A stretch of DNA of 45,048 bases, from the IMG/VR virus record IMGVR_UViG_3300045988_083207; one strand, written 5' to 3'. The stretch is from a virus. The translations under genes and the position numbers were made by a program. Under the pieces are notes generated by a model. The model had not been told where the DNA came from, did not search any database, and saw only the letters and a list, made by a program, of their open reading frames with translations. Of this stretch, positions 1 through 15,459 are shown piece after piece. Position 1 is the first letter of the stretch; the number at the start of each line of letters is the position of its first letter.

Positions 1-41
1 CGCTCGGCCTGTTCGGCGGCACGCAGGACGATAACGGTCAG
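1..41. repeat. Terminal direct repeat, copy 1 (identical to 45008..45048)
   Basis: 41/41 nt identical to the last 41 nt of the window. Confidence 0.95.
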
Positions 42-290: not shown

Positions 291-1718
291 ATGAAGAAGA
301 AACTTCTGAGCATCCTGCTCGTGCTGAGCCTGATGCTCGCGCTCGTCCCGGCGGCCTTCGCGGCGGACGCCGCCAGCGGCACCTGCGGCGCCGAGGGCGA
401 CGGCAGCAACGTCACCTGGACGCTGGACGAGTCCGGCACGCTGACCATCTCCGGCACCGGCGCGATGTGCGACTACGACGATGCCTGGAGCGGCAAGCCC
501 TGGGGAAGCAGCGACGCCGTTCAGGCCGTTGTCGTGCAGGAGGGCGTCACCCACATCGGCGCATACGCCTTCTTTCGCTACACGAATTGCAGGTCCGTCA
601 GTTTGCCGTCCTCGCTGGTCTCGATCGGTGAGAGCGCCTTCGCTATGAACGACGGTCTCCGGGAGCTCGATCTGCCGGAGGGCCTCCGGGAGCTGGGCAA
701 CATGGCGTTCCTGTCCTGCGACGCGCTCAAGCGGCTCACAGTTCCGAGCACGCTCGAGACGATCGGCGATAACACGTTCAACTCGTGCGAGGCGCTCAGC
801 GATGTGACGCTTTCCGAGGGCCTGACTACCGTCGGCAACCTTATGTTCTCCAATGCCAAACGGCTCAAGACCATCACGCTGCCGCAGAGCCTGACGACCA
901 TCGGCGTGGCCGCCTTCCAGTATACCGGGCTGCAGGAGCTGCACATCCCCGCAAGCGTCACGACGATCAATGCCAAGGCATTCCAGGGCGCGGCGCTCAC
1001 TTCGGTCGAGGTGCCCGGAACGGTCAAAACGCTCCTCGACGGCGCTTTTATGGGCTGCGATGACCTGCGCAGCTTCACACTGGGCGAGGGCTCCCGGAGC
1101 GTGCCGGGCGGTCTGCTGGCCCGCTGCCGCTCGCTCGAGCGCGTCACGCTGCCGCAGTCGCTCGAGACGATCGGTGATTCCGCATTTTATGAGTGCCCGC
1201 GTCTGGGCGAGATCAACATTCCGGACAGTGTGACTACCTTGGGCAACAGCTGCTTCAGCGGCACGAGCCTGCGCGAGCTTACGCTTCCGGCGGGCACGAC
1301 TACGATCGGCAACCGCGCGTTTGCCGAGATGCGCTATCTGCGCGAGCTGCACATCCCGGACACGGTCACGTCGCTTGGCATCGGCGTGTTTGCCGGCGAC
1401 AGCGCACTCACAACGGCCACGCTGCCGTCCGGCCTGACCGAGATCCCCCAGAGTACATTTTCCTTCTGCGAGAAGCTCACGTCCATTGAGATTCCCGACG
1501 GCGTTACGAGCATCGGCAAGGAGGCCTTTCAAAAATGCACGAGCCTGACGGCCGTCGACCTGCCGGATGCCGTCACGTCCATCGGCGATCGGGCATTTCT
1601 GAACTGCCAGTCGCTCACGGAGCTGCGGCTGCCCGCTGAGCTGGAGACACTCGGCGACCGTGCGCTTTGCGATGAAAAAGTCAAGGATAAATTACAAAAT
1701 ATCAAGAAAAATATTTGA
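291..1718 (+). CDS. BspA-like LRR surface protein, 5' portion. Host-encoded to 1672, then a 15-codon prophage-derived tail.
   Basis: RBS aaaaggaga 7 nt upstream of ATG 291. Signal peptide MKKKLLSILLVLSLMLALVPAAFA. About 22-residue LRR_5-type repeats (LxxVxIPxSVTxIGxxAFxxC). The repeat pattern breaks at LGDRALC, after which AT-rich DEKVKDKLQNIKKNI* follows. Confidence 0.85.
   Translation: MKKKLLSILLVLSLMLALVPAAFAADAASGTCGAEGDGSNVTWTLDESGTLTISGTGAMCDYDDAWSGKPWGSSDAVQAVVVQEGVTHIGAYAFFRYTNCRSVSLPSSLVSIGESAFAMNDGLRELDLPEGLRELGNMAFLSCDALKRLTVPSTLETIGDNTFNSCEALSDVTLSEGLTTVGNLMFSNAKRLKTITLPQSLTTIGVAAFQYTGLQELHIPASVTTINAKAFQGAALTSVEVPGTVKTLLDGAFMGCDDLRSFTLGEGSRSVPGGLLARCRSLERVTLPQSLETIGDSAFYECPRLGEINIPDSVTTLGNSCFSGTSLRELTLPAGTTTIGNRAFAEMRYLRELHIPDTVTSLGIGVFAGDSALTTATLPSGLTEIPQSTFSFCEKLTSIEIPDGVTSIGKEAFQKCTSLTAVDLPDAVTSIGDRAFLNCQSLTELRLPAELETLGDRALCDEKVKDKLQNIKKNI
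1658..1672. repeat. Left copy of the 15-bp junction direct repeat ccgtgcgctttgcga (attL core or target-site duplication)
   Basis: Identical 15-mer at 43893..43907. Flanks diverge sharply on both sides. Joining host flanks restores the LRR reading frame. Confidence 0.85.
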
Positions 1719-1733
1719 CGTGTGATATACTTG

Positions 1734-1768
1734 GGCCGCTCCAACGTAGTGGAGCGGCCTTTTTCTTC
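1734..1768 (+). terminator. Rho-independent terminator just inside the prophage left end
   Basis: Stem ggccgctcca / tggagcggcc with loop acgtag, followed by tttttcttc. Lies 16 nt after the stop of the truncated LRR ORF. Confidence 0.7.
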
Positions 1769-1850
1769 TGGTTCTTTCGATCCATGGGCGCAGAAAACCA
1801 CCGGCGGCCGAAACCCGGCCCCGGTCGCCCCGCTCCTGTTGTTCAGATTT

Positions 1851-2885
1851 TCAGGCGGCCACGTACTCCTCGAAAACTGCCCCGGCGGATCTCCACCCCA
1901 GGATCCGGCGTGGATAGTTGTTCATCCACTCCGCCGCCCGTTCCACCTCCGCCTCCGTCACCTGATCGAAGTTTGTTCCCTTTGGGAACCACCGCCGCAG
2001 GATCCGGTTCATGTTCTCGTTGCTCCCGCGCTCTTGCGGGGAATACGGGTGGCAGTAGTAAATTTTCGTTCGTGGTCCTTTCAGCCTGTACGATCTCTGG
2101 AGGCCGGCGCAGTCCATAAATTCGCTGCCGTTGTCCACGGTGATGGTGCGGAACACTTCCCGGAACCGCTTTCCCATTCGCCGCTCCAGCCTGTTCAGCG
2201 CCCGGACCACGCTTTCCGCCGTATGATCCGGGACCCGGATCACCAGTCCCCACCTCGTCAGCCGTTCGGTCAGCACCAGCAGGGCCGCCTTTGACCCCAC
2301 CGGCCCCATAATGCTGTCCATTTCCCAGTGGCCGAACGTATTTCGCGCCCGGACCTCCGGCGGTCTGTCCTCGATGGTTTCCCCTGGCGCCTCTTTCGCC
2401 CGTTCCCGCTGTTCATATTCCCGCCGGCGCTCCCCTTTATAAAGCAGGTGTTCTTCTGTCAATTCCAGAAACACGTCCCCCCGGTAAATATACGAATAAA
2501 GGGTGGTTTCGCAGATGTGGGTTTCAAACTCCAGGCCGGCCGCCTCGATGTAGGCCAGCACCGCCCCGGGGGAATAGTGTTCTTCTATGATCTTTCGCTC
2601 CACGAAGTTGGCAAAAGCATGATCCCGGCCCAGTTTGATCTCCGGCCCCTTTGCTCTCAAATTCTCCTGGTATTTCCGCTCCGCCACTTCCGCGCAGTAT
2701 TCCTCCCGGAATATGTACCCCTCTTTTTGCTGGAGGCATAGGCCCCGTTTAATCTCGTTGTAAATTGTCTTGACGCATACCCCCAGCATTTCCGCGATCT
2801 CCGCAGGCTTTCCCCCGGTTTTCAGCGCCCCCTCGATTTTCAGGCGGTCCTCCCACTTTAGGTGGTGATACCCTTTGTAGTTCAT
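1851..2885 (-). CDS. IS30-family DDE transposase (candidate phage integrase)
   Basis: 344 aa. N-terminal HTH (KPAEIAEMLGVCVKTIYNEIKRG). DDE triad contexts GHWEMD, TVDNGSEF and SPQERGSNENMN. RBS aaggggga. Confidence 0.85.
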   Translation of the reverse strand: MNYKGYHHLKWEDRLKIEGALKTGGKPAEIAEMLGVCVKTIYNEIKRGLCLQQKEGYIFREEYCAEVAERKYQENLRAKGPEIKLGRDHAFANFVERKIIEEHYSPGAVLAYIEAAGLEFETHICETTLYSYIYRGDVFLELTEEHLLYKGERRREYEQRERAKEAPGETIEDRPPEVRARNTFGHWEMDSIMGPVGSKAALLVLTERLTRWGLVIRVPDHTAESVVRALNRLERRMGKRFREVFRTITVDNGSEFMDCAGLQRSYRLKGPRTKIYYCHPYSPQERGSNENMNRILRRWFPKGTNFDQVTEAEVERAAEWMNNYPRRILGWRSAGAVFEEYVAA

Positions 2886-2903
2886 ATTTTCCCCCTTTGC
2901 GCG

Positions 2904-2936
2904 AAAAAACGGCCGGCGTGAAAATCACGCCGGCCG
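2904..2936 (-). terminator. Rho-independent terminator between the XRE gene and the transposase gene
   Basis: On the minus strand: stem cggccggcgtg / cacgccggccg, followed by tttttt. Confidence 0.7.
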
Positions 2937-2939
2937 CTC

Positions 2940-3182
2940 TCATTCTTTCCCTAATATCCATAGCACGGAAACGCCCAGGACCTCCGCTATTGTGACCACC
3001 TCATAATCCGTGACCAGGTGATCACCCATTTCCATCCGGCTGATCACGTCCCTCTCCATCGGGACGCCCTCCAGTTGGAGCAGGCGGGCCAGGTCCGTTT
3101 GTGACAGCCGTTTTTCCAGCCTCGCCATGCGTATGCGGTCCCCGCAGATATTCTTTTTCCCGTGATATAGAAATTTCTTCAC
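2940..3182 (-). CDS. XRE-family (Cro/CI-type) HTH regulator
   Basis: 80 aa. IRMARLEKRLSQTDLARLLQLEGVPMERDVISRMEMG. GTG start with GGAGG RBS. Confidence 0.8.
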   Translation of the reverse strand: MKKFLYHGKKNICGDRIRMARLEKRLSQTDLARLLQLEGVPMERDVISRMEMGDHLVTDYEVVTIAEVLGVSVLWILGKE

Positions 3183-3250
3183 CGCCGCGCCTCCGTGTGG
3201 GAATAATCGGACTTTTTCTTAACTTTAGCACGGGATCGCTTGAAAACCCG

Positions 3251-3266
3251 TGGTAATAGTCTGAAC
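3251..3266 (+). promoter_or_regulatory. GTGGTAATAGTCTGAA motif copy a (extended -10-like TGnTAATAG, or operator)
   Basis: 16/16 identical to 22566..22581. Lies between the RHH and XRE genes and points antisense into the RHH gene. Confidence 0.45.
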
Positions 3267-3332
3267 GAAGAAAAATTGATTATTCCAGCGGGGCGCCCTC
3301 GGGCGGCCCCTACACCGGCGCGTGTGGTGCCG

Positions 3333-3542
3333 TTACTCTTTCCCCAGGATTTCGTCCGCCAGTCGGTCCATGGCCATTTCCATGAACTCGTTAAGGCTAT
3401 GTCCTGCGGCGGCTGCGGCCGCTTTGTATCGGTCCTTTTTTCCTCGTTTTACATACGGGGAAAGTCGATCATAGTTCTTTTCGTTGAAAGCCCGCTTGTA
3501 GTCCGTGGCGCTCATTCCGCCCTCTTTTTTTGGTCTGCCCAT
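3333..3542 (-). CDS. Ribbon-helix-helix (Arc/CopG-like) DNA-binding protein
   Basis: MGRPKKEGG...YDRLSPYVKRGKKDRYKAAAAAAGHSLNEFMEMAMDRLADE. ATG 3542 has a GAGGTG RBS. Confidence 0.65.
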   Translation of the reverse strand: MGRPKKEGGMSATDYKRAFNEKNYDRLSPYVKRGKKDRYKAAAAAAGHSLNEFMEMAMDRLADEILGKE

Positions 3543-3560
3543 ACTTATCACCTCGCCCTC

Positions 3561-3572
3561 ATAATACCACGG
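3561..3572 (-). promoter_or_regulatory. Motif copy b, CCGTGGTATTAT (extended -10-like), directly upstream of the RHH gene
   Basis: Minus strand reads ccgTGgTATTATgagggcgaggtgataagtATG. Confidence 0.45.
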
Positions 3573-3584
3573 ATTTTCGTTTTT

Positions 3585-3660
3585 ATCTACTGTTAGATTT
3601 ATATAAATATCTCACGTTAGATTTGTATATTCCGCCCCTTGTTTTTATCTCCTGTTAGAT
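3585..3660. promoter_or_regulatory. Three 14-bp palindromic operator-like sites, ATCT(A/C)-N4-TAGAT
   Basis: Sites at 3585..3598 atctactgttagat, 3609..3622 atctcacgttagat and 3647..3660 atctcctgttagat. They lie in the AT-rich divergent region between the RHH gene and the plus-strand small ORFs. Confidence 0.65.
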
Positions 3661-3667
3661 GTATAAT
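3639..3667 (+). promoter_or_regulatory. Sigma-70-type promoter for the plus-strand small-ORF operon
   Basis: -35 TTGTTT (3639..3644), 17-nt spacer, -10 TATAAT (3662..3667). The third operator sits in the spacer. Confidence 0.55.
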
Positions 3668-3700
3668 CTAATCAGTTCAAGAGGAAAGGGGGTGGTTGAA

Positions 3701-3835
3701 ATGGGCAAGAAAAAACGCCGCAGGCGAAAGCCTACGGCGCAGCCCTCCAGAAAAGTTGACTTCCTGGCCGACATTCTGGCGGGCACGATCTCCGGCCTGA
3801 TAACAGCGGCAATTCTCAAATTGCTGGACTGGTAA
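3701..3835 (+). CDS. 44-aa small protein with a basic N-terminus and hydrophobic C-terminus
   Basis: RBS ggaaaggggg. MGKKKRRRRKPTAQPSRKVDFLADILAGTISGLITAAILKLLDW*. Below the ORF-track length cut-off. Confidence 0.45.
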   Translation: MGKKKRRRRKPTAQPSRKVDFLADILAGTISGLITAAILKLLDW

Positions 3836-3841
3836 AGGCCA

Positions 3842-3871
3842 GGGGTGCGGAGGCCCGAACCTCCGCACCCC
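3842..3871 (+). other. Perfect 12-bp GC-rich hairpin without a U-tract
   Basis: Stem ggggtgcggagg / cctccgcacccc with loop cccgaa. Confidence 0.6.
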
Positions 3872-3916
3872 AAATATAAAACAATTCGTCCGGTTTTGTC
3901 AATAGGAGGGCAGTTG

Positions 3917-4018
3917 ATGAAATTTATAATTTCTCTTGTGATCTTTGTGGCGGTGTTCGTCCCGCTCCGTCGGTTGTTCCGCAAAATTCTGAAAGGTGGT
4001 AAAGATCATGTTGATTAA
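3917..4018 (+). CDS. 33-aa small membrane peptide
   Basis: RBS aggagg. MKFIISLVIFVAVFVPLRRLFRKILKGGKDHVD*. Confidence 0.35.
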   Translation: MKFIISLVIFVAVFVPLRRLFRKILKGGKDHVD

Positions 4019-4229
4019 ACAGAATGGGAAATATGGGGCCATGGTCGGAAATATCCGGGTTTTTACCATGGAACGGGCCGTGGAGGTCTATAAGATGTTC
4101 GCCGCCCGGTGTTATGCGGACCTCACCATGGAGGCCAGCGTGGTTCTCTCCAATGTGGGTGACGATATGCACCGCCTTGGTTTCACTTGGGCTGAAATTG
4201 AAGATATGGAACTGGAGGCAATCGCGTGA
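4008..4229 (+). CDS. Hypothetical protein (73 aa)
   Basis: ATG 4008 after aaaggtgg. MLIKQNGKYGAMVGNIRVFTMERAVEVYKMF... Confidence 0.5.
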   Translation: MLIKQNGKYGAMVGNIRVFTMERAVEVYKMFAARCYADLTMEASVVLSNVGDDMHRLGFTWAEIEDMELEAIA

Positions 4230-4240
4230 TCGCAGATAAA

Positions 4241-4267
4241 CCCCCGGCACCTGCGCGGTGCCGGGGG
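4241..4267. terminator. Hairpin between convergent genes (bidirectional terminator)
   Basis: Stem cccccggcac / gtgccggggg, followed by ttctcttt. Confidence 0.6.
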
Positions 4268-4273
4268 TTCTCT

Positions 4274-4612
4274 TTACTCTGTTTTGCTTTTGTTCCAGTC
4301 GGTGATCTGTTCCAGGGCCTCCCGCAGTTTATCGAACCCGAACATGGCCGCGTATGCCACGAACAGGCCCAGGGCCACCGCGCCGGCCACCATGTACCAG
4401 GTGACGGCCCAGCCCATGATCTGGCACACCGCAAAGAACGCCACCAGGGTCACGGCCATGGATACCACCACGGCCAGGATATTGGTGGGGATCTTGTCCC
4501 AGGTTACTTTCTTTACCACCTGGGTGATGATGTTCGTGATCACGGTCAGGATCAGCGCCGCCAGCAGGATGGCGGACACCACCACGGGGATGTACTGCAT
4601 AATGTTTTCCAC
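4274..4612 (-). CDS. Holin-like membrane protein
   Basis: 112 aa with three hydrophobic segments and a charged C-terminus. Sits immediately downstream of the endolysin. Confidence 0.6.
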   Translation of the reverse strand: MENIMQYIPVVVSAILLAALILTVITNIITQVVKKVTWDKIPTNILAVVVSMAVTLVAFFAVCQIMGWAVTWYMVAGAVALGLFVAYAAMFGFDKLREALEQITDWNKSKTE

Positions 4613-4630
4613 TTTTATGTCCTCCTCTGA

Positions 4631-5614
4631 TTATTTCACAGCCCCGCCCAGCGCCTGCAGCAGCAGGTCCAGGGAAGGGAATGTGCCGTAAATGCTCCGC
4701 CAGTAGTCCGGGGAGTTGATCACGCCGGCGGCCGCCAGGGCGTCCACGCCCTCCTCCGGTGTGTTGGTGCGCGGTCCCGCTTTGGTGATGGCCTGCGCGG
4801 CCGCTTTCAGCAGCAGGTCCAGATATTTCACCTTTCCCGCCTCCGCCGCCTCCGCCCAGTAGTCCGGGGAGTTGATCACGCCCAGGGCCTCCAGTTTATC
4901 GGCGGCCGCCTGGGGGGTGTCCTGGAGCATAAGCACCTGGCCCACCCGGATCAGGTTCTTGTTTTTGATGGCGTTGATCTCCACCAGCGCGTCCACGGTG
5001 GTCCCGTATGTATTGGCAATTTTGGATAGTGTGTCGCCGGACTTCACCGTGTAGATGGTCGCTCCGCCGGCGGATCCATTCGCGGTGCCGCCGGTTTCGG
5101 TTGCTTTGCCCGCATAGTCCGGGGTGCCGAAACCGCGAATATACTTCCCGTTGATCTTCATGGTCCGGTATCCCACGGCGTTGCTCTTGTTCCCCTCGAT
5201 CACGGTAAAGGTGCTGCCGGACACCGCCGTGACGATACCCACATGGTCGGCGGAGGCCGTCAGGTCGGTGGTTGCGTAGTTCGCGCCGTCGTCCCAGTTG
5301 TAAAAAATGTAGTCGCCCGGCTCCGGCGTGTAGGCGTCATTTTCCTGCCAGGCCCCCAGTTTCTTGAACAGTTCAATGTGCTTTTCGCACCCGCACTCGG
5401 TGGGAATAATGTCGGTCATTCCCGCTTTGATGGCCACGGCGCTGGCAAATGTGCTGCACCATGCGTCCGTGTACTTCACCGCGTACCCCCGGGCCAGGGG
5501 CTTGTGGGAGTTGTAAACGTCGATGATCTTTTTGTGGCTCCCGTCGCTTTCTTTGCACCCCAGCCACGCCACGGCGGTGTCCACAATCTTTTGTCGCAGT
5601 TGCTGTTCTGTCAT
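4631..5614 (-). CDS. Endolysin: CHAP/NlpC-P60-type peptidase, LysM, and two C-terminal GVINSPDYW repeats
   Basis: Catalytic context [13 protein letters not shown] ... DHVGIV. LysM: [27 protein letters not shown]. Two repeats [11 protein letters not shown] / [11 protein letters not shown]. Confidence 0.8.
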
Positions 5615-5630
5615 TGGTAAACCCTCCTTG

Positions 5631-6044
5631 TTAAATCCCCACGTCTGGCGGTTCCTCCCGCTCCGTGGGCGGTTCTACCGGATCGGCCCTTCGGCCGCTC
5701 CCGCTCGTTCTGGCGGCCTCCGCCGCCTTGTCCTTGTTGGTCTTGATCCACCCCATGACGCCATTTTCCAGCCCACACACCCCGAACACACAGGCCGTCA
5801 GCGTTGCAGGTTCGCTCCCCGTGTGCCAGAACACGGCCAGGTCCGCCGCCGTGTAGATCACCAGCACAACGGCCTCCAGGATCAGAACCTTGTCCATAGT
5901 TCCCATTTTCTTTTCTGCCGCCTTTGCCAGTCGTGCAGCGGCCACCCTGTTTCCTCCGGCCAGCCGTGTGGCCACCCAGCACAATGCAAAGGCAAGCGCG
6001 GCCCCTCCCATCATGGCGGCCGCCGCAATAAATACCGTTTTCAT
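5631..6044 (-). CDS. Membrane protein of the lysis cassette (holin-like)
   Basis: Start [14 protein letters not shown] overlaps the upstream stop by 1 nt. Multiple TM segments. Confidence 0.5.
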
Positions 6045-6379
6045 CACGCCGCCACCGTCAGCAGGTAGACGATCCCGGCGAACGCGGCCGCCGCCAGGGC
6101 GCCCACCAGTCCCCCTATGAATTTGTCCACGATACCGTCCCACCGTTTCCCCGGTTTTCTCTCTATCGCGTCCACCTTCTTGTCCAGATCCGTCACGCTC
6201 TGCTTTATGTTCGACATGGCCTCCGTCTGGTATTTCTGCTCTGTCGCCATGACCTCCACAGCGGTGGCCAGCCGGTTCACGGCGTCGATTTCCTCCGCCA
6301 GTTCGTTGATCCGGTGGGTGTTCGATTTGCTCCGCTGCTCAACCTCTGCCAGTTTTACGGCCATTTCTTCCTGGTTCAA
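6044..6379 (-). CDS. xhlA: XhlA-like lysis-associated protein
   Basis: N-terminal coiled coil plus a single C-terminal TM (GGLVGALAAAAFAGIVYLL). Positioned ahead of the holin and endolysin as in PBSX. Confidence 0.55.
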   Translation of the reverse strand: MNQEEMAVKLAEVEQRSKSNTHRINELAEEIDAVNRLATAVEVMATEQKYQTEAMSNIKQSVTDLDKKVDAIERKPGKRWDGIVDKFIGGLVGALAAAAFAGIVYLLTVAA

Positions 6380-6558
6380 GGTCCCACCCCCTCACCGATG
6401 GCCACGGCATACTGCTGCCGGACGGCCGCGATCTCCTCCGCATGGGCTACCGCTCCATGCTGTGCCAGTTCCATGGCCTGCGCCTGAATGATCACGTTCA
6501 TGCGGTCAATGACGGCGCACAGGTCTGCGATCACCTTTGTGTGGTCCATTGGCGTCAC
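6376..6558 (-). CDS. Hypothetical protein (60 aa)
   Basis: ORF with overlapping stop/start coupling to its neighbours. Confidence 0.4.
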   Translation of the reverse strand: MTPMDHTKVIADLCAVIDRMNVIIQAQAMELAQHGAVAHAEEIAAVRQQYAVAIGEGVGP

Positions 6559-6959
6559 CCCCTTGCCCCGATCAGTCCCGCGATATGCCGCAGGTCCTCC
6601 ACCGGCGCCTCGAAAAATTCATGGCTCCACAAGAAATGATCCTCATGGTCTGCCCGCCTGTATTTCTGGCAGGTGGCGTCCTCCCACACCAGATCCCAGC
6701 GGTCTTGATGGCCTTTGTCCCGTTTCTCCAGTCTGGAGGTAATGGCCAGCGTCAGGGCGCCCCGCTCCCGGCCTTGTCCGTCGTCGTCCCTGGCGAAATA
6801 CAGGTGTGCTTTTCTGCTGGTCACGGCGCACACGGCCGCACCCTGGTGGATGATCAGGCCGTCCACGGCCTCCACTTCCGTGCCATAGGGGAGATTTACG
6901 CGGCCGGAGATCCCCGCCTCTCTCATGCGCTTTTTAACGATGTAGCGGACATTCCCCAT
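6555..6959 (-). CDS. Hypothetical protein (134 aa)
   Basis: Translationally coupled ORF. No motif recognised. Confidence 0.5.
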   Translation of the reverse strand: MGNVRYIVKKRMREAGISGRVNLPYGTEVEAVDGLIIHQGAAVCAVTSRKAHLYFARDDDGQGRERGALTLAITSRLEKRDKGHQDRWDLVWEDATCQKYRRADHEDHFLWSHEFFEAPVEDLRHIAGLIGARG

Positions 6960-6962
6960 TGG

Positions 6963-7592
6963 TTACACCTCCGCCGCGTCGTCTGCGGCCTCCGTCCATC
7001 CGTACACGCCAGGCTCCCAAACATTGGCCGCCACGTCACTGATCCAGTGTTTCCCGTTGTGGCTGACCTTTGCCCCCTGTTCGTATGCGTCATGGGCGCC
7101 CAGTGGCTGGGACCATTCCGGCCACTCCTCCGCAGGGTCGGAAATGCTCACCCACAGGCTCACCGCCGCGTCCGGCGTCCAGTCCGCTTGCGACGTGTGC
7201 GCCTGCAGGCATTTATACAGTTTCCCGTCCGTGTAGCGCCGGATCTGCCCGGCTGCGTAGTTGACGGGATAGGCCCATGGTGAAAACAGGTCCGCGTGTT
7301 CCGCCGCTGTCACGTCGTCGATGTTTCCGGCCTCCGCCATGGTGGTGAACACGATCCCGTTGGCCGTTGCCGTTTTCTCGATCTCCTGGCCCGCGTCCAC
7401 TTCCTCCATGACCACGCTTTCCGCGCCCTCCACGGCATCTCTGCCCAGGATGTGGTACACGGCCCCGCCGTATGCGATCCCCGTCGCCTCCGCCTCCTGG
7501 CAAAGGACAAAGCACCCGTTTCCCGCTTGCCTCACATAGGTGGGTGCCTCGGTCATGCCCAGGCTTGTCCCGTCCTTGATGATCTTAAACAT
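6963..7592 (-). CDS. Carbohydrate-binding protein with two CBM5/12-like modules
   Basis: YAAGQIRRYTDGKLYKCLQAHTSQADWTPDAAVSLW and YEQGAKVSHNGKHWISDVAANVWEPG. ATG 7592 has a GGAGGTG RBS. Confidence 0.6.
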   Translation of the reverse strand: MFKIIKDGTSLGMTEAPTYVRQAGNGCFVLCQEAEATGIAYGGAVYHILGRDAVEGAESVVMEEVDAGQEIEKTATANGIVFTTMAEAGNIDDVTAAEHADLFSPWAYPVNYAAGQIRRYTDGKLYKCLQAHTSQADWTPDAAVSLWVSISDPAEEWPEWSQPLGAHDAYEQGAKVSHNGKHWISDVAANVWEPGVYGWTEAADDAAEV

Positions 7593-8715
7593 GGTCTGCA
7601 CCTCCATAAATTGCATGAAATAGCCGGTTCAGTTTCAGGACCCGGCCGTGGTCGTTGTAGTTCTCAAAATAGGCGATCTGGCTTGTCAGCCATTCCCGCA
7701 CCTGGGTGACAGTCATTTCCCCGGCGTCCACCTTTGCCCTGAACGCCCGCAGTTTCCGCCGCGCCCGTTTCATCCCGTCCCGGTTCCCATGGGTGATCAC
7801 CTTCCCGGTTTGTGTCAGGTGGAATTTTACCTTGCAGAACCGGAACGGCTTTGACAGCGGCACGATCTTGGTTTTTCTGCGGCTCACCGTCAGCCCCATG
7901 GCCTCCATTTTCTCCGTTACCGCGTCCCGGAACGCCTCCGCCTGTTCTTTCGTTTCCGCGATCATGTGGTAGTCGTCCATATAGTGGGCCGGTGCCTCCG
8001 CCCGCAGTTGGCAGGCCGCCCAGTTGTCCACGGCGGACGGCAGGGACACCATTTCCATCTGTGACGGCTCCACGCCCAGCGGCATACCTGCGCCGCCAGG
8101 AACGGAGGCCACCACCATGTCCGCCACCGCCCGGATCTCATTGTCCAGGATCAGGCGCCGGTGGCGTTCGTAGATCTCCGCATGGGGCGCGGATGGAAAG
8201 AACTGCTTTAGGTCCATAAGGACCACGTACCCCTCCTGGCCATGTTTCCGGTAATGGTCCCGCAGGATCTTTTTCAGTTCCTCATGGTGGAAGTGCAGGC
8301 CCTTTCCTCGTTGGCTGGCTCCGTTTCGGTATATCATCCCCGGGGTGTATAGCGGCTCCAGCACTTCCTTGGTCAGGGTTTTGTGGATCTGTCTGTCGTT
8401 GATGTGCGGGGCGTCTATTGGCCGGATCTTTCCTCGCTCCCGGAGGAGGAAGTGGGCGCCCGGTTTCGGCCGCCATGTCCCGGAAATGACTTCCCGCCGC
8501 CGGCGGGCCGTCCCGGAAAACAGGTGCCGTTCAAAGTTCTGCGTGGACTGTTTCCACCTCACATTGTTGCAGCACTTCTTTCCCCATTTGAACATTTTCC
8601 GAAAACTGAACGCCTGGTCTATCCCGCCCAGGGCGTCGTTTCGGATCCGCCGCCGCTCCTCTCGGGCGGCTTTTCGTCTATGGTATCGCGCCTCGCGGCG
8701 CTCCTCACTGGTCAT
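7585..8715 (-). CDS. DGR reverse transcriptase
   Basis: 376 aa from ATG 8715. Motifs VVLMDLKQFFPS, GMPLGVEPSQ (the SQ typical of DGR RTs), HYMDDYHMI, SRRKTKIV. Lies next to the TR. Confidence 0.85.
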   Translation of the reverse strand: MTSEERREARYHRRKAAREERRRIRNDALGGIDQAFSFRKMFKWGKKCCNNVRWKQSTQNFERHLFSGTARRRREVISGTWRPKPGAHFLLRERGKIRPIDAPHINDRQIHKTLTKEVLEPLYTPGMIYRNGASQRGKGLHFHHEELKKILRDHYRKHGQEGYVVLMDLKQFFPSAPHAEIYERHRRLILDNEIRAVADMVVASVPGGAGMPLGVEPSQMEMVSLPSAVDNWAACQLRAEAPAHYMDDYHMIAETKEQAEAFRDAVTEKMEAMGLTVSRRKTKIVPLSKPFRFCKVKFHLTQTGKVITHGNRDGMKRARRKLRAFRAKVDAGEMTVTQVREWLTSQIAYFENYNDHGRVLKLNRLFHAIYGGADHV

Positions 8716-8941
8716 ATATTTTATTCGCGCCTCCGTGCGGTTTTGGTGTAGGTGTGCGGCTAAACCGCGTAGCCCCGGCACATGAAACGGGGTTAGCACA
8801 ATAGACCCGCCATGCAAGCAGCGTCCGTGCAAGGGCCACAAAGTGCGGTTTCGGGTTTTGCCCGGGAAGTATCTCTCCTTTCACAATGGGTCCGGTTCGT
8901 TTCCTACTGCATTTGACCCGCTCCCCCTTGCGGAGGTTGTG

Positions 8942-9067
8942 AAATCCGGGGGCCACGGCCCAGGAATTGTTCGCGTTGTTGTTGTTGGCGCTGCCGTTGG
9001 TGTTGACAAGGCAGAAATTGTTGGTGTTCGTCGCATTGACGGACCGGCACCACGCATTGGCCGCCGT
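8942..9067 (-). repeat. DGR template repeat (TR)
   Basis: 126 nt collinear, without indels, with 9678..9803 and 39518..39643. Its coding-sense strand is rich in AAC/AAT codons (NATNTNNFCLVNTNGSANNNNANNS). Confidence 0.85.
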
Positions 9068-9128
9068 CAAAGGGTCCGCCGCCCTGCCACTCGGCACGTT
9101 TTCAGAGATACACCCAATGGCCAGTGAT

Positions 9129-9587
9129 TTATTTTCTTTTTCGGTCGCTCTCCAGAACGGCCCGGATCAGTTCGTTTTCCCTGTCGATCTTTTCGGCCAG
9201 GTTTTGCGCCATATCATCCAGTTTTTTGGTGGCCTCCGCCGCCGGTATGCTTTTCCCGTCCGGCTTTGTAAAGCACCCCTGCGGGTTCAATGCCAGGATG
9301 GTATAACAATGCCCCAGGCGCACGTCCAGGGCCATGAGCGCGGCCCTGGCCTCCAGCAGGTGCCCTTTCCGCAGGCCCATGTTCGGCTCTCCCTTTGGAA
9401 AAATACTGTTCGCCTTTTCCGTCTGATCGATCACTTCCCCGGCCAGCGCGGCCACCGGCTCCGCCAGCAGGCGGGCATACCTTGCGGAAAGCCTGGTCAG
9501 AAATGCCACGGTTTCCACGTAGATCTCATTGGCCAGGTTTACGTACTCCGCCTTGCTGGTTGATCTCTTGCTTTTCAGTACGGACAC
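9129..9587 (-). CDS. avd: Avd-like accessory variability determinant (helical bundle)
   Basis: 152 aa, predicted helical. GTG start with AAAGGAGGGG RBS. Canonical position between the target gene and the TR. Confidence 0.55.
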   Translation of the reverse strand: MSVLKSKRSTSKAEYVNLANEIYVETVAFLTRLSARYARLLAEPVAALAGEVIDQTEKANSIFPKGEPNMGLRKGHLLEARAALMALDVRLGHCYTILALNPQGCFTKPDGKSIPAAEATKKLDDMAQNLAEKIDRENELIRAVLESDRKRK

Positions 9588-9622
9588 GGCCGCCCCTCCT
9601 TTCGGTTCTTTCTCGGTCGGAT

Positions 9623-9644
9623 CCCGCCCACTTCCGTGGGCGGG
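9623..9644 (-). other. Hairpin downstream of VR1 (9-bp GC stem, GGAA loop on the coding strand)
   Basis: Plus strand reads cccgcccac ttcc gtgggcggg. Lies about 25 nt after the fibre stop codon. Confidence 0.7.
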
Positions 9645-9668
9645 ATTTTCTCCGATTGCTCCGCCGGA

Positions 9669-12191
9669 TTAGGCGGCAAAGCCGGGGGCCACGGCCCAGG
9701 AAACGTCCGCGCCGCTGCTGCCGGCGCCGCCGTCGGTGTAGACACGGCAGAAAATGCCGGTGTACGCCGCACGGACGGACCGGCACCACGCATAGGCCGC
9801 CGTGCCGGTGGCGTCGTGCTTGTAATGCACCTTGCTGTTGCCCGCCTGGTAATAGGCGTACTGCTGCTGGTAGTTCTGTTCCGCGCTGTTGGCATAGGAC
9901 CGGGCGCCCTGCACCTCGAACTCCGAAAGCAAAGGCAGGTAGTCCGTGGTGCTGGTCACATAACTGGCCGTATTGCTCCCGCCGCCGGTGTTGTCGCTGT
10001 ACTTGGTGATCGGTTTCATTACAGCGCGGAGATCCGCCGGCAGGGCCGCCAGCAGGGTGTTTGCCCTCGGGCTGGTTGGGGTCGTGTCGGAACCCAGGAC
10101 CGTGGTTCTCATGTGGCTGCCAGCCCACCCGCCGCTGTTGGTGTTGCTGGTGTTCATGGTAAACTTTCCGCTTGTGCTGGTGGAACTCCCGTAACTGCTA
10201 TCGCAGAGGCCCACCTGGGTGCCGCCGATCTTCCCGATCTTGAAGTGGATCCGGTTGGAACCCTCCCGGCTGGCGTTGTGGTTGAACCCCAAAATAAAAA
10301 CATTGATTGACAGGTTGGAGAACGAAGTGGCGCCCACGGTCCCGTTGATGGTGATGGTCTTGGTGTCGCCCACGTCCCAGTAGTTGTCCCCCTGGCCCGC
10401 GTCGGAAACCGCCTTGATGGTGGCCCACGAATTGCTGTTTAAGGTGCTTGAGATCACGGTCACGGTGATGGCCTGGGTGGTCGTCTTGGTCACTCCGCCC
10501 TCCGAATAGGAAACGGTGATGGCCGTGGTCCCCTGCGAAAGGGCGCCGGTGGGGGAGTAGGTGTACCCGGTTACTGCCGCGCTGCTCCCGTCGTTATAGT
10601 GCGCCGTCACCACCATGCCCGCCGTGCTGAAAGTTTCCCCGGAGAAATAGGAGGTCCTGCTGGGCGGTGTGGTGATCTCAATGCTGGTCAGCACCTTGGA
10701 AACAGTGATGGCCTGGGTGGCCGTCTTGGTCACTCCGCCCTCCGAATAGGAAACGGTGATCGTGGTGCTGCTCATGTTCAGGGTGCCGGTGGGGGAGTAG
10801 GTGTACCCGGTCACGGCGCGGCTTGCGTCGTCCGTATAGTACGCCGTCACCACCATGCCCGCCGGGTTGAAGGTTTCCCCGTACTTGTACGCCGTCTTTG
10901 TGGGCGGCGTCGTTACCGCGATATGGTCCAGGACCCGCACGGCCACCGCCACCGTGGTGGTCTTTGTGATCCCCGCCCGGCTGTATGTCACAGTGACAGA
11001 CTGGGTTCCCTGTGCCATGACCTGGGGGGAAAATGTGCAGTCGTCCGTCACGTTTTCGGTGGTGTCGTCCTCAAAAGTCGCTGTCACCACCATGCCCGCC
11101 GGGCTGAAGTTCTCTCCGATGAAATAGGTGGTTTTTGTCGGCTGCGTGGTCACGGCGATCCCGCTCGTGATCATCAGGTCCACCTCATACAGCAGGCCGC
11201 CGCCCACCTCAACCTCCTGGGACACGCTTTCGCCGTTCAGGCTTGCCGTCACGGTCCAGGCGCCCACGTGCGGCAGTTCAAACTCCGTGGAACCCGTACC
11301 TTGCAGGGTGGTTTCTCCGCCGTCAGAACAGGTCACGGACGCGCCCGCACAGGTTGTCACGGAAATGGTGGGGCTTTGCACCCCGATGGCCTCTTTCAGC
11401 GCCTGCAGGGTTGCTCTCCGGTGCTGTCCCGTGGATACGTCATAGAAGGGAATAAAGTCCTGCGTGTTCATGCTGCTTTCCTGCGTCAGGGCGTTGGTGG
11501 GCGCCTGGTAGTCCGTGCCCGCCGTTGCCTTTTCCACGCTGTACTTGTCGCCCTCCTCGGTGGTTGTCTTTTTCCCTTTCAGCAGGCCCTCCACTTTGAT
11601 CTGGTCCTGTTTATTTGCCAGGGCGCCGCCGTGGGCGTCCGGGTCCTCGTTGTGGTCGTCGATCAGATCCTGCAGGCTCTCCTCCAGTTCCGGCTTGATC
11701 GTGTTGTTGAAATATTCCGCCACGTCCTCGGCGGTCATCCACGCCTCCGCAGGATACGCCACGTCAACCTGGGTTCCGGTCGTCACCGTGATGGATACCG
11801 GATACCGGCGCACGTCCGGCGCCGTGCCCGCTACGTATGCGCTCACGTACTGCTTGGCGTTGCCCAGGGAACCATACCCGATCAGGGTTTCCTCTCCGTT
11901 CCCCACCTTTCCGAAAATGCCAAATTCTCCGATCCAGAACCCTTCCTGCAGTCCTCCGTTCAGGTCGGATCTGTATTCCACGATCATGTTGACGTTGTTC
12001 CCGTCCACCGTGGGCGCGGTGCTTGTCGCCTCCGGCCCCGGTGCGATCAGGTCCGTTAATTCCCGCGCCGCGTCCGGGTTGTCTGCAGTTCCTTCACCCA
12101 CCACAGCCTTTGTGATGGTCAGGGTCTGCCCGGCCACCATGCTGGCCAGGAGCGCGTTTCCGCTCTCCGTGATTACAAATCCATAGAACAC
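9669..12191 (-). CDS. Tail fibre / DGR target 1: tail-collar N-terminus, three Ig-like repeats, C-terminal lectin-type variable domain
   Basis: 840 aa. N-terminus MFYGFVITESGNALLASMVAGQTLTITKAVVGEG is P2 H-like. Three roughly 80-aa repeats. C-terminus is AYAWCRSVRAAYTGIFCRVYTDGGAGSSGADVSWAVAPGFAA*. Confidence 0.85.
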   Translation of the reverse strand: MFYGFVITESGNALLASMVAGQTLTITKAVVGEGTADNPDAARELTDLIAPGPEATSTAPTVDGNNVNMIVEYRSDLNGGLQEGFWIGEFGIFGKVGNGEETLIGYGSLGNAKQYVSAYVAGTAPDVRRYPVSITVTTGTQVDVAYPAEAWMTAEDVAEYFNNTIKPELEESLQDLIDDHNEDPDAHGGALANKQDQIKVEGLLKGKKTTTEEGDKYSVEKATAGTDYQAPTNALTQESSMNTQDFIPFYDVSTGQHRRATLQALKEAIGVQSPTISVTTCAGASVTCSDGGETTLQGTGSTEFELPHVGAWTVTASLNGESVSQEVEVGGGLLYEVDLMITSGIAVTTQPTKTTYFIGENFSPAGMVVTATFEDDTTENVTDDCTFSPQVMAQGTQSVTVTYSRAGITKTTTVAVAVRVLDHIAVTTPPTKTAYKYGETFNPAGMVVTAYYTDDASRAVTGYTYSPTGTLNMSSTTITVSYSEGGVTKTATQAITVSKVLTSIEITTPPSRTSYFSGETFSTAGMVVTAHYNDGSSAAVTGYTYSPTGALSQGTTAITVSYSEGGVTKTTTQAITVTVISSTLNSNSWATIKAVSDAGQGDNYWDVGDTKTITINGTVGATSFSNLSINVFILGFNHNASREGSNRIHFKIGKIGGTQVGLCDSSYGSSTSTSGKFTMNTSNTNSGGWAGSHMRTTVLGSDTTPTSPRANTLLAALPADLRAVMKPITKYSDNTGGGSNTASYVTSTTDYLPLLSEFEVQGARSYANSAEQNYQQQYAYYQAGNSKVHYKHDATGTAAYAWCRSVRAAYTGIFCRVYTDGGAGSSGADVSWAVAPGFAA
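9678..9803 (-). repeat. DGR variable repeat 1 (VR1)
   Basis: Differs from the TR at 20 positions that are all adenines on the TR coding strand, plus one non-adenine site (9745). A flanking IMH-like stretch from 9665 is shared with VR2 but not with the TR. Confidence 0.85.
10463..11180 (-). repeat. Tandem repeat of about 240 bp, three copies, encoding Ig-like domains
   Basis: 10466..10520 versus 10706..10760 is nearly identical (period 240). The third copy is diverged. Confidence 0.8.
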
Positions 12192-12206
12192 TGGTTTACC
12201 TCCTGT

Positions 12207-12860
12207 TTATCCCGCCGCCGGTATGGCGGTTTGTGTTATTGTCCCGAACGCTCCGCCAGAATACAGGCTTTCGTTCAGGTTGTAGTCCACCGGGGCCTCC
12301 GGCAGCGGCGTGGATGTGTAGCCCTTTCCCATGGTCCCCGTGAATGTCACGAAATCGGGATCCATGGTCGTGATGGTGATAATATCATCCAGCCACGAAG
12401 AAAGGCGTTTTACAGAGGACAGGACGCGCCGGAACTCCTCCAGTTCCCCAGGCTCCACCTCTCCGCCGTCGCCTACGTATGCCCGGAAGTGGTGCGGATC
12501 TCCGTCGTACTCGTACCACTCCTCTATGTACCCTGTCTGGAAAATGGTTTCAATGATCCGGTTTACCGCCGCCGGCGTCCCCATCTGCGAATAGAACAGG
12601 AGGGACCCCTGGATCAGCGCCCGTTTTGTGTTCAGGGAATAGTTTTCATCATAGGAAGGGGTGCGAAGTTCCACGGCCATATAGTCCAGCAGCCATTCCG
12701 GCATTGTTGATATGGCCGCGTAGGTCCTGGCCGCGTCGGAGTAGGCGCACAGTTTTTCAATCTGCCTCCCCACCGCATAGGCAAAAGCCTGCGTTTCCAC
12801 TTGCCCGGCCAGGTTTTCCGGCATGATCTGCGTGAACCGGCTCCCGGAAAGTTTAATCAT
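12207..12860 (-). CDS. Baseplate/tail protein, P2 gpI-like
   Basis: 217 aa, directly after the baseplate J-like gene. QAFAYAVGRQIEKL...LDYMAVELRTPSYDE. Confidence 0.6.
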   Translation of the reverse strand: MIKLSGSRFTQIMPENLAGQVETQAFAYAVGRQIEKLCAYSDAARTYAAISTMPEWLLDYMAVELRTPSYDENYSLNTKRALIQGSLLFYSQMGTPAAVNRIIETIFQTGYIEEWYEYDGDPHHFRAYVGDGGEVEPGELEEFRRVLSSVKRLSSWLDDIITITTMDPDFVTFTGTMGKGYTSTPLPEAPVDYNLNESLYSGGAFGTITQTAIPAAG

Positions 12861-14700: not shown

Positions 14701-14703
14701 TGT

Positions 14704-15042: not shown

Positions 15043-15056
15043 GGCTCCCGCCTCCT

Positions 15057-15449: not shown

Positions 15450-15459
15450 TGGTTCCTCC

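Follow-up and report, generated by a model that had tools for sequence, protein, structure and literature searches.

Our analysis indicates that a gut-bacterial prophage as a whole acts as a single, very large IS30-type transposable unit and is not a prophage with a passenger insertion sequence (IS); we put the probability of this reading at about 0.85. The window (the whole stretch of DNA analysed here, 45,048 nucleotides) holds a complete temperate myovirus whose terminase and portal are of the lambda type and which has a contractile tail and a diversity-generating retroelement (DGR). The phage is of the Lagaffe / "IScream" kind and interrupts a surface-protein gene. Phage and host DNA are arranged as follows.

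291..1672, plus strand: interrupted host gene, 5' part, with signal peptide and BspA-type leucine-rich repeats
1658..1672, no strand: left copy of the 15-bp target-site duplication, CCGTGCGCTTTGCGA, absent from circle junctions
1673..43892, minus strand for nearly all genes: the mobile unit, that is, the prophage, 42,220 bp, ends set by relatives and circles
43893..43907, no strand: right copy of the 15-bp target-site duplication, the second copy of CCGTGCGCTTTGCGA
43908..45048, plus strand: interrupted host gene, 3' part, with leucine-rich repeats and an SLH-type C-terminus, running off the window

Homology with relatives breaks off exactly at 1673 and 43892, and circular forms link these two positions. 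When both window ends were compared by BLAST with 80 related viral loci, matches stopped at 1673 and 43891/2. The exact boundaries of the mobile unit are the outcome of comparing many copies. Within them lie genes for terminase gpA, a lambda-family portal, capsid, sheath/tube, baseplate, tape measure, endolysin and the DGR, together with a replication-initiator-like protein (REP_ORF2-G2P, PHROG 3584); no MuB-like ATPase was seen in the phage gene set. In the window CCGTGCGCTTTGCGA occurs only at 1658..1672 and 43893..43907, and removal of 1673..43907 leaves one open reading frame in which the 23-residue leucine-rich-repeat period is kept. In L100, a Pfam SLH match was found in the next host gene past the window's left edge.

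The left end of the unit carries the transposase gene and its neighbours.

1733..1768, plus strand: terminator-like hairpin, 11-pair stem with 8 G-C pairs, then a T-run
1851..2885, minus strand: IS30-family DDE transposase, the presumed integrase, 344 aa, outward-reading at the left end
2903..2936, minus strand: terminator-like hairpin in the gap between the XRE gene and the transposase gene, from an inverted-repeat scan and the sequence
2940..3182, minus strand: XRE-type HTH regulator (repressor-like), with Pfam HTH_31 and HTH_3 and PHROG transcriptional repressor families

The first-pass annotation had described the gene nearest the left end as an intact IS30-type DDE transposase, and it is one: the protein matches NCBIfam NF033563 ("IS30 family transposase") with 231.9 bits (cut-off 80 bits) over model positions 2-267 of 267, contains the Pfam domains HTH_38 (residues 6-48) and rve (residues 184-269), and is matched end to end by PHROG 4646 ("transposase", 408 bits). 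D190, D251 and E285 are invariant across nine aligned homologues (46-100% identity), with spacings of 60 and 33 residues; E285 is presumably the catalytic glutamate in preference to the equally invariant E290, a choice for which we assumed the DD(33)E spacing of the IS30 family. The gene is read from the minus strand, and 178 bp separate its stop codon at 1851 from the left tip (1673). Its best matches are phage-borne (FP_Lagaffe, Clostridium phage Saumur, gut viral contigs and PHROG 4646), and its position and orientation are kept in phage lineages down to 46% identity, including FP_Lagaffe. The XRE gene stands directly upstream, with the same synteny in 8 of 8 places among those listed. The hairpin between the two genes has a perfect 12-bp stem (2910..2921 with 2925..2936), followed by a T-run on the minus strand. 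The hairpin at 1733..1768 lies just inside the left tip and opposes transcription arriving from the host gene.

The IS30-family transposase is the only recombinase of the element. Pfam scans of the tiling minus-strand ORFs, and likewise of ten selected other ORFs, found no Phage_integrase, Resolvase or Recombinase domain, and the 92 remaining stop-to-stop ORFs of at least 140 aa (other frames and strand) contained no recombinase, the sole Pfam match among them being one SWIM finger. These scans of all ORF sets uphold the earlier statement that the element has no tyrosine or serine recombinase. The accompanying suggestion that the IS30 transposase serves as integrase gains support from the same scans and from the varied insertion sites and two-base circle junctions described below; by exclusion and by analogy, it is this enzyme that would move the element.

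Eleven insertions could be read on both sides. Their duplications measure 15 bp in eight cases, 14 bp in two and 16 bp in one, and the duplicated sequences all differ. Phages with identical or near-identical transposases adjoin 59 distinct host flanks (22 right, 37 left), and the identical 344-aa protein lies in six or more distinct host contexts, the phage genes upstream of it being the same each time. The compared copies indicate that there is no common att sequence and that integration duplicates 14-16 bp of target, usually 15. Because the eleven paired duplications all differ, the 15-bp repeat is a target duplication and not an att core, a possibility that the first-pass annotation had raised together with the comparison of insertion sites in related prophages that now bears it out.

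Contigs of the circular form read left tip, two variable bases, right tip, and lack the 15-mer. Among more than 30 distinct junction contigs from four lineages the variable bases number exactly two, with the one exception of L032 (59 nt). Spacers in the window's lineage include AA, AT, CT, TG, GC, TC and CG; a lineage whose transposase is 66% identical has GC, CC and CG, and another (52% identical) shows 12 different dinucleotides. Some 100 ends were examined, and in all of them it was an outermost tip that met the other tip or host DNA. Such contigs point to a free form in which the tips are abutted via two variable bases, the hallmark of IS30, although they could stem from tandem copies instead of free circles. 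A search for circular junctions with one or zero copies of the 15-mer had been proposed at the outset; the answer is zero copies, with two variable bases in their place.

The tips and the first gene past the right tip have the following layout.

1673..1705, no strand: left terminal region, with tip TGAAAA, AGTCAA at 1679..1684, then the sub-terminal inverted repeat 1681..1705
43539..43814, minus strand: 91-aa HTH protein, inward-reading, first gene past the right tip, HTH domain only
43835..43880, minus strand: leader hairpin (13 + 4 bp), then U7, between the -10 hexamer and the ribosome-binding site of the HTH gene
43860..43892, no strand: right terminal region, with the sub-terminal inverted repeat 43860..43884, the -10 hexamer and the tip

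On the minus strand, AGTCAA at 1679..1684 is the -35 hexamer TTGACT. The right tip, also read on the minus strand, is GGCAGCCAT and contains the -10 hexamer TAAGAT at 43878..43883. An imperfect inverted repeat of the tips had been reported in the first annotation, and 1681..1705 indeed matches the reverse complement of 43860..43884 at 17 of 25 positions, in register at positions 9-33 (shuffling p ~2e-5). This register is the best of all tried, yet other registers reach 16 of 25, and by itself the tip repeat would be weak evidence. Elements of the IS30 type typically have terminal inverted repeats of 20-30 bp; in lineage 2 the tips, as read, show a 14/16 inverted match at positions 16-31. Over their outermost 8 nt the two tips are not inverted repeats of each other, and terminal dinucleotides are not conserved between lineages.

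The right-end gene had been likened to the N-terminal HTH of IS30 transposases, and this likeness stands. Its product shares 34% identity with residues 13-80 of the transposase (E = 2e-9), has matches in PHROG 11420 and at the N-terminal end of PHROG 4646, and scores 27.0 bits with HTH_38, exactly the cut-off; on these alignments it is a paralogue of the N-terminal DNA-binding domain of the transposase. A role as directionality factor would be a guess. The start codon lies 78 bp from the right tip, and the exact 91-aa protein is listed in 3,469 blocks of the assembly collection. The leader hairpin in front of the gene has a free energy of -26.9 kcal/mol (z = -5.2); in other lineages, judged by eye, a hairpin and T-run of different sequence occupy the equivalent place.

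When the tips are joined, the two hexamers come to lie at promoter distance. In circle L095 the promoter scanner finds TTGACT-17-TAAGAT spanning the junction; at the integrated right end it finds no promoter. The layout (-35, 6 nt, 2-nt spacer, 9 nt, -10) recurs in lineages with different tip sequences, and three lineages as well as FP_Lagaffe keep the -35 half at 6 nt from the tip. In the cultured phage FP_Lagaffe the -35 position and the 2-nt gap are unchanged, and the best -10, as read, is TAATAT, which lies 8 nt into the right tip (16-nt spacing). The junction promoter of the window's lineage scores just 9 of 12. Conservation of the motifs suggests that the junction functions as a promoter; the leader hairpin and U-run downstream could terminate its transcripts.

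In two lineages, a host sigma-70-type promoter directed away from the phage is present in about 80% of the right-end flanks. In lineage 1, 14 of 22 right flanks have a promoter scoring at least 9 of 12 with its -35 box 25-27 nt from the tip, and five more of lower score have the -35 at exactly 26 nt (19/22 with these weaker boxes). Of the left flanks, 4 of 37 are similar (-35 box 25-29 nt from the tip), and 3.8% of shuffled flanks reach a promoter score of at least 9 with any distance allowed. Lineage 2 gives 16/20 right flanks: 14 reach a score of 9 or more, and the other two fall below it with the -35 at exactly 26 nt. In L112 the promoter 26 nt from the tip receives 12 of 12 from the scanner. 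Among the right-end places listed, the nearest host gene is directed away from the phage in 10/10, with its start codon some 90-165 bp from the tip in 9/10. These flanks indicate that in most insertions of the two lineages the duplication lies about 11 to 25 bp upstream of a host -35 box, and that the tip facing the host promoter is the right one, the early-gene tip. The window's own insertion, inside a leucine-rich-repeat gene with no promoter near, is among the few exceptions; targeting is therefore a strong and oriented preference, but not a rule.

From these patterns we infer the following cycle. The transposase would bind the sub-terminal inverted repeats, cut the 3' ends at both circle tips, with the 2-bp spacer being discarded, and transfer the cut ends to target phosphates with a 15-bp stagger. 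Upon induction the junction would be re-formed via the IS30 copy-out route, and two flanking bases would be picked up. The re-formed junction would build a promoter from the left-tip TTGACT, a 17-bp gap that includes the spacer, and the right-tip TAAGAT; this promoter would serve the HTH gene and the early operon, and would do so only while the phage is circular or in virion form; its splitting by integration would help silence the prophage. The 91-aa HTH paralogue probably binds the same sub-terminal repeats as a regulator. Taken as a package, and for IScream / Lagaffe-like phages in general as single giant IS30-like units, oriented integration into the UP-element zone with a duplication of about 15 bp, a spacer derived from the last site and a split early promoter have somewhat better than even odds in our judgement; the same odds hold for the idea that the UP-element zone is a safe haven on which these phages and the unrelated TnGBS/ISLre2 transposases have converged. 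Within the package, the sequence patterns of target choice are much firmer than the function of the junction promoter.

Four other explanations were weighed against the single-unit reading. The gene at 1851..2885 might belong to an ordinary IS30-family IS of 1.1-1.5 kb near the prophage end, the integration function of the phage being elsewhere, lost or unrecognised. Passenger elements of this family are known from phage records (the phiPV83 attP region, IS983 in bIL311), and weak GC-rich inverted pairs occur at 1815-1834 / 3287-3306. The first annotation had seen no IS-sized inverted repeats around the gene, however, and our scan found none that are credible: the best pair (20 nt, 80% complementary, GC-rich) is one of 58 chance-grade pairs. 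No short duplication brackets the gene alone. A solo IS of 1.1-1.3 kb, which the first-pass annotation had named as the opposing case, is likewise not what the places listed contain; phage genes accompany the transposase gene in all eight, and the identical protein never stands solo, with the same phage genes upstream. The conserved position and orientation of the gene, a moving unit that ends at 1673 and 43892, and the lack of another recombinase in the element also speak against a passenger, so that this reading is largely refuted and very improbable. Somewhat less remote, though unlikely, is a composite transposon in which an intact and a decayed IS30, each with its own ends, bracket and mobilise the phage. 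The paralogy between the right-end gene and the transposase N-terminus would fit such a structure, and a composite-transposon analogy has been drawn for IScream phages (PMC12823448). Against it, the inverted-repeat scan, which covered the left end, revealed no inner IS boundaries there, the transposase-like gene at the right end is just 276 bp long, the outer tips alone are joined or host-flanked, and one promoter is divided between the two tips, a design that suits one IS30/IS911-type unit and not two ISs. The phage may conceivably have arisen from a composite long ago.

The perfect 15-bp direct repeat around the prophage has the classic look of attL and attR, as expected if a tyrosine or serine recombinase that escaped recognition had integrated the phage site-specifically at a 15-bp core. 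Such a core should persist in the circles, where two variable bases stand in place of CCGTGCGCTTTGCGA, and should recur between insertions, where the 59 flanks and the eleven paired duplications differ; moreover, no recombinase domain was found in any frame. The att-core reading is refuted by these observations and has next to no probability left. Mu-like replicative transposition with headful packaging from integrated copies would agree with a DDE transposase as sole recombinase and with the many insertion sites. It is nevertheless very doubtful, given that the terminase is of the gpA (lambda cos) type and the portal of the lambda family, that the relative Lagaffe has a mapped cos site (PMC5883640), that a replication-initiator-like protein is present without a MuB-like ATPase being seen, and that free-form contigs have abutted tips and not variable host DNA at both ends.

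Integration of tailed temperate phages by IS30 transposases is already published, and the window is one more member. The first-pass annotation recognised no tailed temperate phage that relies on such an enzyme; on this point it is superseded by two precedents. A 2018 description of Faecalibacterium phage Lagaffe presents a virion-producing myovirus that has a cos site and encodes a reverse transcriptase and an IS30-family integrase (PMC5883640). The defining traits of "IScream" phages (Wirbel, Hickey et al., Nature 2025) are a full-length IS30 transposase that reads outward at one end and a truncated IS30 gene at the opposite end; 1,780 candidates were reported, and circles and virions were shown experimentally in Blautia hansenii (PMC12823448). 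The present phage resembles them in having no classical integrase, complete structural modules, gut Clostridia hosts, the same phage in many host contexts, an outward full-length IS30 transposase less than 1 kb from one end and an inward, short and catalytically empty IS30-derived gene opposite, and we found no difference in kind. In a term search of PMC12823448, inverted repeats, direct repeats and target sites were not mentioned and "duplication" appeared solely as a structural-variant type; the 2-bp junction, 15-bp duplication, promoter targeting and split promoter therefore add to the IScream account. These four features were not found in the literature searched, and they argue for a single IS-like unit over a composite transposon for IScream phages.

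FP_Lagaffe (Lagaffevirus; Cornuault et al. 2018, PMC5883640; MG711461) is likewise a myovirus with a reverse transcriptase (DGR). Its "integrase, IS30 transposase family" is 49.6% identical to the window's transposase and is followed by an HTH gene; its junction reads TTGACT, 6 nt, 2 nt and a right tip with -10 box, then hairpin and T-run; and direct repeats flank the prophage in its host. It differs in belonging to another lineage, with a 48-kb genome, other tip sequences and a much shorter intergenic region between transposase and HTH gene.

With IS30 itself the phage shares the transposase family, the DD(33)E spacing and the 2-bp circular junction. The IS30 junction also creates a promoter; here it is aimed at the early operon and not, as in IS30, at the transposase gene. 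IS30 measures 1.2 kb against 42 kb here and inserts into palindromic hot spots or IS30 ends, whereas the phage prefers a zone upstream of promoters, and unlike in IS30 the outermost 8 nt of its tips are not inverted repeats. ICE6013 of Staphylococcus aureus is a large element with an IS30-like transposase, as is the phage, but is conjugative and not viral; it makes 3-bp duplications and prefers AT-rich palindromic targets. Mu and Mu-like phages, such as Faecalibacterium phage Mushu, have in common with the present one that a DDE transposase with an rve-type core integrates a tailed temperate phage. In Mu, transposition is the mode of replication, headful packaging leaves host DNA on either side, duplications are 5 bp long and MuB is required; the present phage has a cos-type terminase, a circular form with abutted tips and 15-bp duplications. 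A duplication of 15 bp is far from the 2 bp of IS30 or the 3 bp of ICE6013, so the geometry of target capture must differ from the prototype. In IS30 circles the inverted repeats are abutted via a 2-bp spacing in a copy-out-paste-in route, and the target duplication is 2 bp (family short, 2-3 bp), as against 14-16 bp here (PMC9333248 for IS30). In a synthetic phage, lambda integrase could be exchanged for an IS30 transposase (Kiss et al. 2003, as cited in PMC12823448 and PMC5883640).

If true, the splitting of the junction promoter would amount to a physical switch from one state to the other, free or integrated. Targeting, if enzymatic, would explain how very abundant gut phages enter many hosts without wrecking genes, and it would suggest a simple prediction of insertion sites and base-exact annotation of boundaries. 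It would also be a second, independent case of promoter-targeted DDE transposition. The elements TnGBS and ISLre2 / ISKra4, described in a paper that also names ICE6013, use Mutator-like DDE transposases and a circular intermediate and insert in an oriented manner 15-17 bp upstream of sigma-A -35 boxes (PMC3942029). TnGBS is, like the phage, a large element in which a DDE transposase replaces the integrase and which inserts at a fixed short distance upstream of a -35 box; TnGBS, ISLre2 and ISKra4 are Mutator-like conjugative elements or ISs, not IS30-type phages. Promoter-proximal insertion is accordingly a shared behaviour and not family membership, since the transposases are unrelated, and a resemblance that is behavioural only suggests convergence.

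The 15-mer CCGTGCGCTTTGCGA occurs only twice in the window, at 1658..1672 and 43893..43907. Once 1673..43907 is deleted, 291..1672 joins 43908 onwards as a single open frame, whose product is a secreted host protein with BspA-type leucine-rich repeats and an SLH-type C-terminus; the 23-residue repeat period of the host gene is continuous over the restored join. Because the deletion restores both frame and repeat period, the 42,220 bp between the 15-mer copies are an insertion. Nearly all of the prophage genes lie on the minus strand. Those identified by Pfam and PHROG searches include:

4631..5614, CHAP-LysM endolysin
7585..8841, minus strand, reverse transcriptase of a diversity-generating retroelement (DGR)
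9669..12191, tail fibre with Ig-like domains
16972..19269, tape measure
25785..27329, major capsid protein
27915..29471, lambda-family portal
29662..31503, gpA-type large terminase
38278..39057, replication-initiator-like protein

The set also comprises P2-type baseplate proteins, tube, sheath, two DNA methyltransferases, an SLT lytic transglycosylase and an HD protein, and with this gene content the element is a complete temperate phage of the cos type with a contractile tail. The DGR has two targets and lies within 7585..9802 and 39505..39886, its other parts being:

8707..8921, minus strand, Rfam RT-2 RNA
8929..9066, template repeat
9129..9587, Avd-like ORF
9665..9802, variable repeat 1, at the 3' end of the tail-fibre gene
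39505..39642, variable repeat 2, at the 3' end of a 125-aa ORF in the early region

Repeat mismatches fall at template adenines in 25/32 and 16/23 cases. An Rfam DUF3800-VIII RNA motif (32155..32220, minus strand; 44.6 bits, gathering score 40.2) sits within an unannotated 306-aa ORF upstream of the large terminase gene. About 1.25 kb of the late operon (22650..23930) shows no third-position GC periodicity on either strand and could represent non-coding DNA or an inserted moron; a hidden recombinase was rejected here, the sole content being a SWIM zinc finger ORF (23491..23928, plus strand). Nucleotides 1..41 and 45008..45048 of the window are identical, as a circular contig would look. A circular replicon was nevertheless ruled out, since the independent assembly L100 continues into a tandem paralogue (85% identical) upstream; the identity is thus a repeat between adjacent host genes, and probably the point where the assembler stopped.

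The first-pass annotation had proposed an IS30-type transposase as the only recombinase of this phage, perhaps acting as its integrase. The product of ORF 1851..2885 (minus strand) is indeed an IS30-family transposase of full length: it scores 231.9 bits with NF033563 (cut-off 80), has the Pfam domains rve and HTH_38 and matches PHROG 4646 end to end. A PDB sequence search gave no match at E up to 0.01, so the catalytic residues were taken from conservation: D190, D251 and E285 are invariant among homologues down to 46% identity. Pfam scans covered the tiling minus-strand ORFs of the element, ten selected other ORFs and, one by one, the remaining 92 stop-to-stop ORFs of at least 140 aa; none held a tyrosine or serine recombinase domain, which bears out the claim of a single recombinase. 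Equally, an inverted-repeat scan returned no IS-sized pair bracketing the gene, as had been stated; weak GC-rich inverted pairs nearby were rejected as IS ends. One metagenome contig has a tyrosine integrase gene (L101, 5693..6904) in host sequence some 1.5 kb outside the left tip. It belongs to a neighbouring element, not to the phage, and could mislead automatic annotation.

To define the ends, 80 viral loci encoding relatives were compared and both window ends were aligned to each. Homology stops precisely at 1673 and 43891/2. Several contigs carry the ends joined head to tail, reading ...CTTGACTTTTTCA + NN + GGCAGCCATTAAG... in the direction of the transposase, where NN are two variable bases: AA, AT, CT, TG, GC, TC and CG are among those of the window's own lineage, GC, CC and CG occur in a lineage with a 66% identical transposase, and 12 different dinucleotides in a lineage with a 52% identical one. 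The 15-mer was never present in the circle junctions examined, the two variable bases standing in its place. Abutment of two ends through 2 bp characterises the copy-out-paste-in intermediate of IS30 (PMC9333248), and the junction of the phage circles is the same. Two junctions are irregular and may be aberrant transposition products or assembly artefacts: in L032 the tips, about 70 nt downstream of the transposase, are 59 nt apart, not 2, and in L087 (676..700) the right tip is partly duplicated in tandem.

The exact 344-aa transposase adjoins at least six different host contexts, preceded in each by the same phage genes; one of these, from another sample, is the window's own insertion, identical over 3 kb. 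The exact 91-aa protein of the right end is listed in 3,469 blocks of the assembly collection, and the ten places listed are ten different host loci. A degenerate pattern matching both tips had 9 matches in species-representative genomes, where no contig carried both tips, and 51 in metagenomes. Among the genomes, the hosts belonged to Flavonifractor, Pseudoflavonifractor, Dysosmobacter, Agathobaculum and other Oscillospiraceae; Flavonifractor sp. An100 has a left tip. With the loci retrieved before, these matches gave 59 distinct insertion flanks. Flanks were paired across contigs of one MAG or sample, with one 48-kb metagenome contig in addition, yielding 11 paired insertions with duplications of 15 bp (8), 14 bp (2) or 16 bp (1), all different in sequence; two 8-nt "duplications" were discarded as chance A-run matches. 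Relatives thus occupy many sites with variable duplications, as for transposition. Since their duplications span 14-16 bp and each differs, the 15-bp repeat of the window is a target-site duplication rather than an att core, an option that the first-pass annotation had raised. IS30, in contrast, duplicates 2 bp.

The insertion sites have a further property in common. In most flanks, the 15-bp duplication at the right tip is followed outward by about 11 nt and then by a host promoter directed away from the phage, its TTGACA-like and TATAAT-like boxes 17 nt apart. In the window's lineage, 14 of 22 right flanks have a -35 box at 25-27 nt with a promoter score of at least 9/12, and five weaker ones lie at exactly 26 nt; on the left the corresponding number (25-29 nt) is 4/37, and shuffled flanks reach the score in 3.8% at any distance. 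The lineage with the 52% identical transposase, whose tips are different, gives 16/20 right flanks, of which 14 score at least 9 and the other two, which score lower, have the box at exactly 26 nt. Loci with promoters 25-27 nt from the right tip are L103-L112, L114, L118, L119, L158, L159 and L170; L174-L214. For L112 a promoter scanner independently gives a 12/12 promoter 26 nt from the tip. One right flank (L142) lacks the promoter and its left side (L161) has one, which identifies an inverted insertion. Among the ten right-end places listed, the host neighbour gene is directed away from the phage in all ten, with its start codon about 90-165 bp from the tip in nine. Such constancy of distance and orientation argues that the integration machinery itself targets promoter-proximal sites, and against selection among insertions once made. 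The window's own insertion, within an ORF, has no such promoter on its left or right flank and is an exception to the preference.

A second promoter is predicted at the circle junction itself. There, the left tip contributes TTGACT, 6 nt short of its end, and the right tip contributes TAAGAT after its first 9 nt; counting the 2-bp spacer, the two hexamers are 17 nt apart. The promoter scanner detects the junction promoter in circle L095 and no promoter at the integrated right end of the window. The geometry recurs in lineages with different tips (TTGACT-TTTGCG-NN-TGTTGAGAG-TATCAT and TTGACT-TTTAGC-NN-GGCAACCAC-TAAGAT), and in the Faecalibacterium phage FP_Lagaffe the -35 position and the 2-nt gap are unchanged, the best -10 box read by eye being TAATAT at 16-nt spacing. 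The predicted promoter is directed into the right-end HTH gene and a long co-directional gene array. Because its halves lie in opposite tips, integration would part the -35 box from the -10 box; the different halves also account for the lack of inverted repetition in the outermost 8 nt of each tip. In L112 (2909..2937) a -35-like TTTACA within the host flank is correctly spaced from the phage TAAGAT, so some insertion sites could partly rebuild the split promoter. Directly downstream of the junction promoter, between right tip and first phage gene, lies a hairpin followed by U7 (43835..43880, minus strand; -26.9 kcal/mol, z = -5.2), the 5' arm of which is overlapped by the -10 box. Other lineages have a counterpart at the equivalent place, with structure but not sequence kept as judged by eye. 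On one reading the hairpin would block read-through from outside, while transcripts begun at the junction would lack part of its 5' arm; attenuation and protein binding are equally possible roles.

The first-pass annotation had likened the right-end gene to the N-terminal HTH of IS30 transposases, and ORF 43539..43814 (minus strand) proves to encode this 91-aa HTH-only protein, paralogous to residues 13-80 of the transposase (34% identity, E = 2e-9). The imperfect inverted repeat described at the tips is likewise real (17/25 positions in register, shuffle p ~2e-5); other registers reach 16/25, so the repeat alone is weak evidence. Every element of that earlier sequence observation was therefore confirmed. 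At the left end an XRE-type regulator (2940..3182) lies directly upstream of the transposase gene, and a perfect 12-bp hairpin with a T-run separates the two; since this hairpin precedes the gene, transposase expression probably needs read-through. A terminator-like hairpin on the plus strand (1733..1760) would face transcription arriving from the host gene.

Taken together, these data support, at the sequence level, the interpretation of the IS30-type transposase as the integrase of the phage. That the gene is merely a passenger IS in a prophage is contradicted by the missing IS ends, the lack of solo copies among the places listed for the identical protein and the conserved synteny. A literal composite transposon of two ISs would have inner ends, which the repeat scan at the left end did not find, and is also contradicted by tips designed as two halves of a single promoter; composite ancestry is possible. 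Site-specific att recombination is contradicted by both the circle junctions and the diversity of insertion sites. The circle junctions also contradict Mu-like replicative transposition, as do the cos-type packaging genes and the 15-bp duplication.

The first-pass annotation recognised no tailed temperate phage relying on an IS30-type enzyme. This statement fails, because such phages have been published. A translated search of GenBank phages returned FP_Lagaffe with a 49.6% identical transposase, annotated as "integrase, IS30 transposase family"; relatives also occur in Clostridium phage Saumur and many gut viral contigs. In the description of Lagaffe by Cornuault et al. (2018), the phage is a myovirus that has a cos site, encodes a reverse transcriptase and an IS30-family integrase, and is bounded by direct repeats (PMC5883640). 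In the IScream phages of Wirbel, Hickey et al. (2025), one end carries a full-length IS30 gene that reads outward, and the opposite end a truncated IS30 gene that is non-catalytic and reads inward; 1,780 candidates were counted in a gut virus catalogue, and circles and particles were demonstrated for a Blautia hansenii example (PMC12823448). The term "IScream" is in routine use in a 2026 preprint. The phenomenon is thus already published and our element adds another member. In the literature searched we found no description of the base-level mechanics or of the oriented, promoter-proximal targeting, and both merit experimental test. The targeting parallels that of TnGBS and ISLre2, whose Mutator-like transposases place the element in a set orientation, 15-17 bp upstream of the -35 box of sigma-A promoters (PMC3942029), although the transposases are unrelated. 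In its anatomy, at both ends, the element is exactly what defines the IScream phages.
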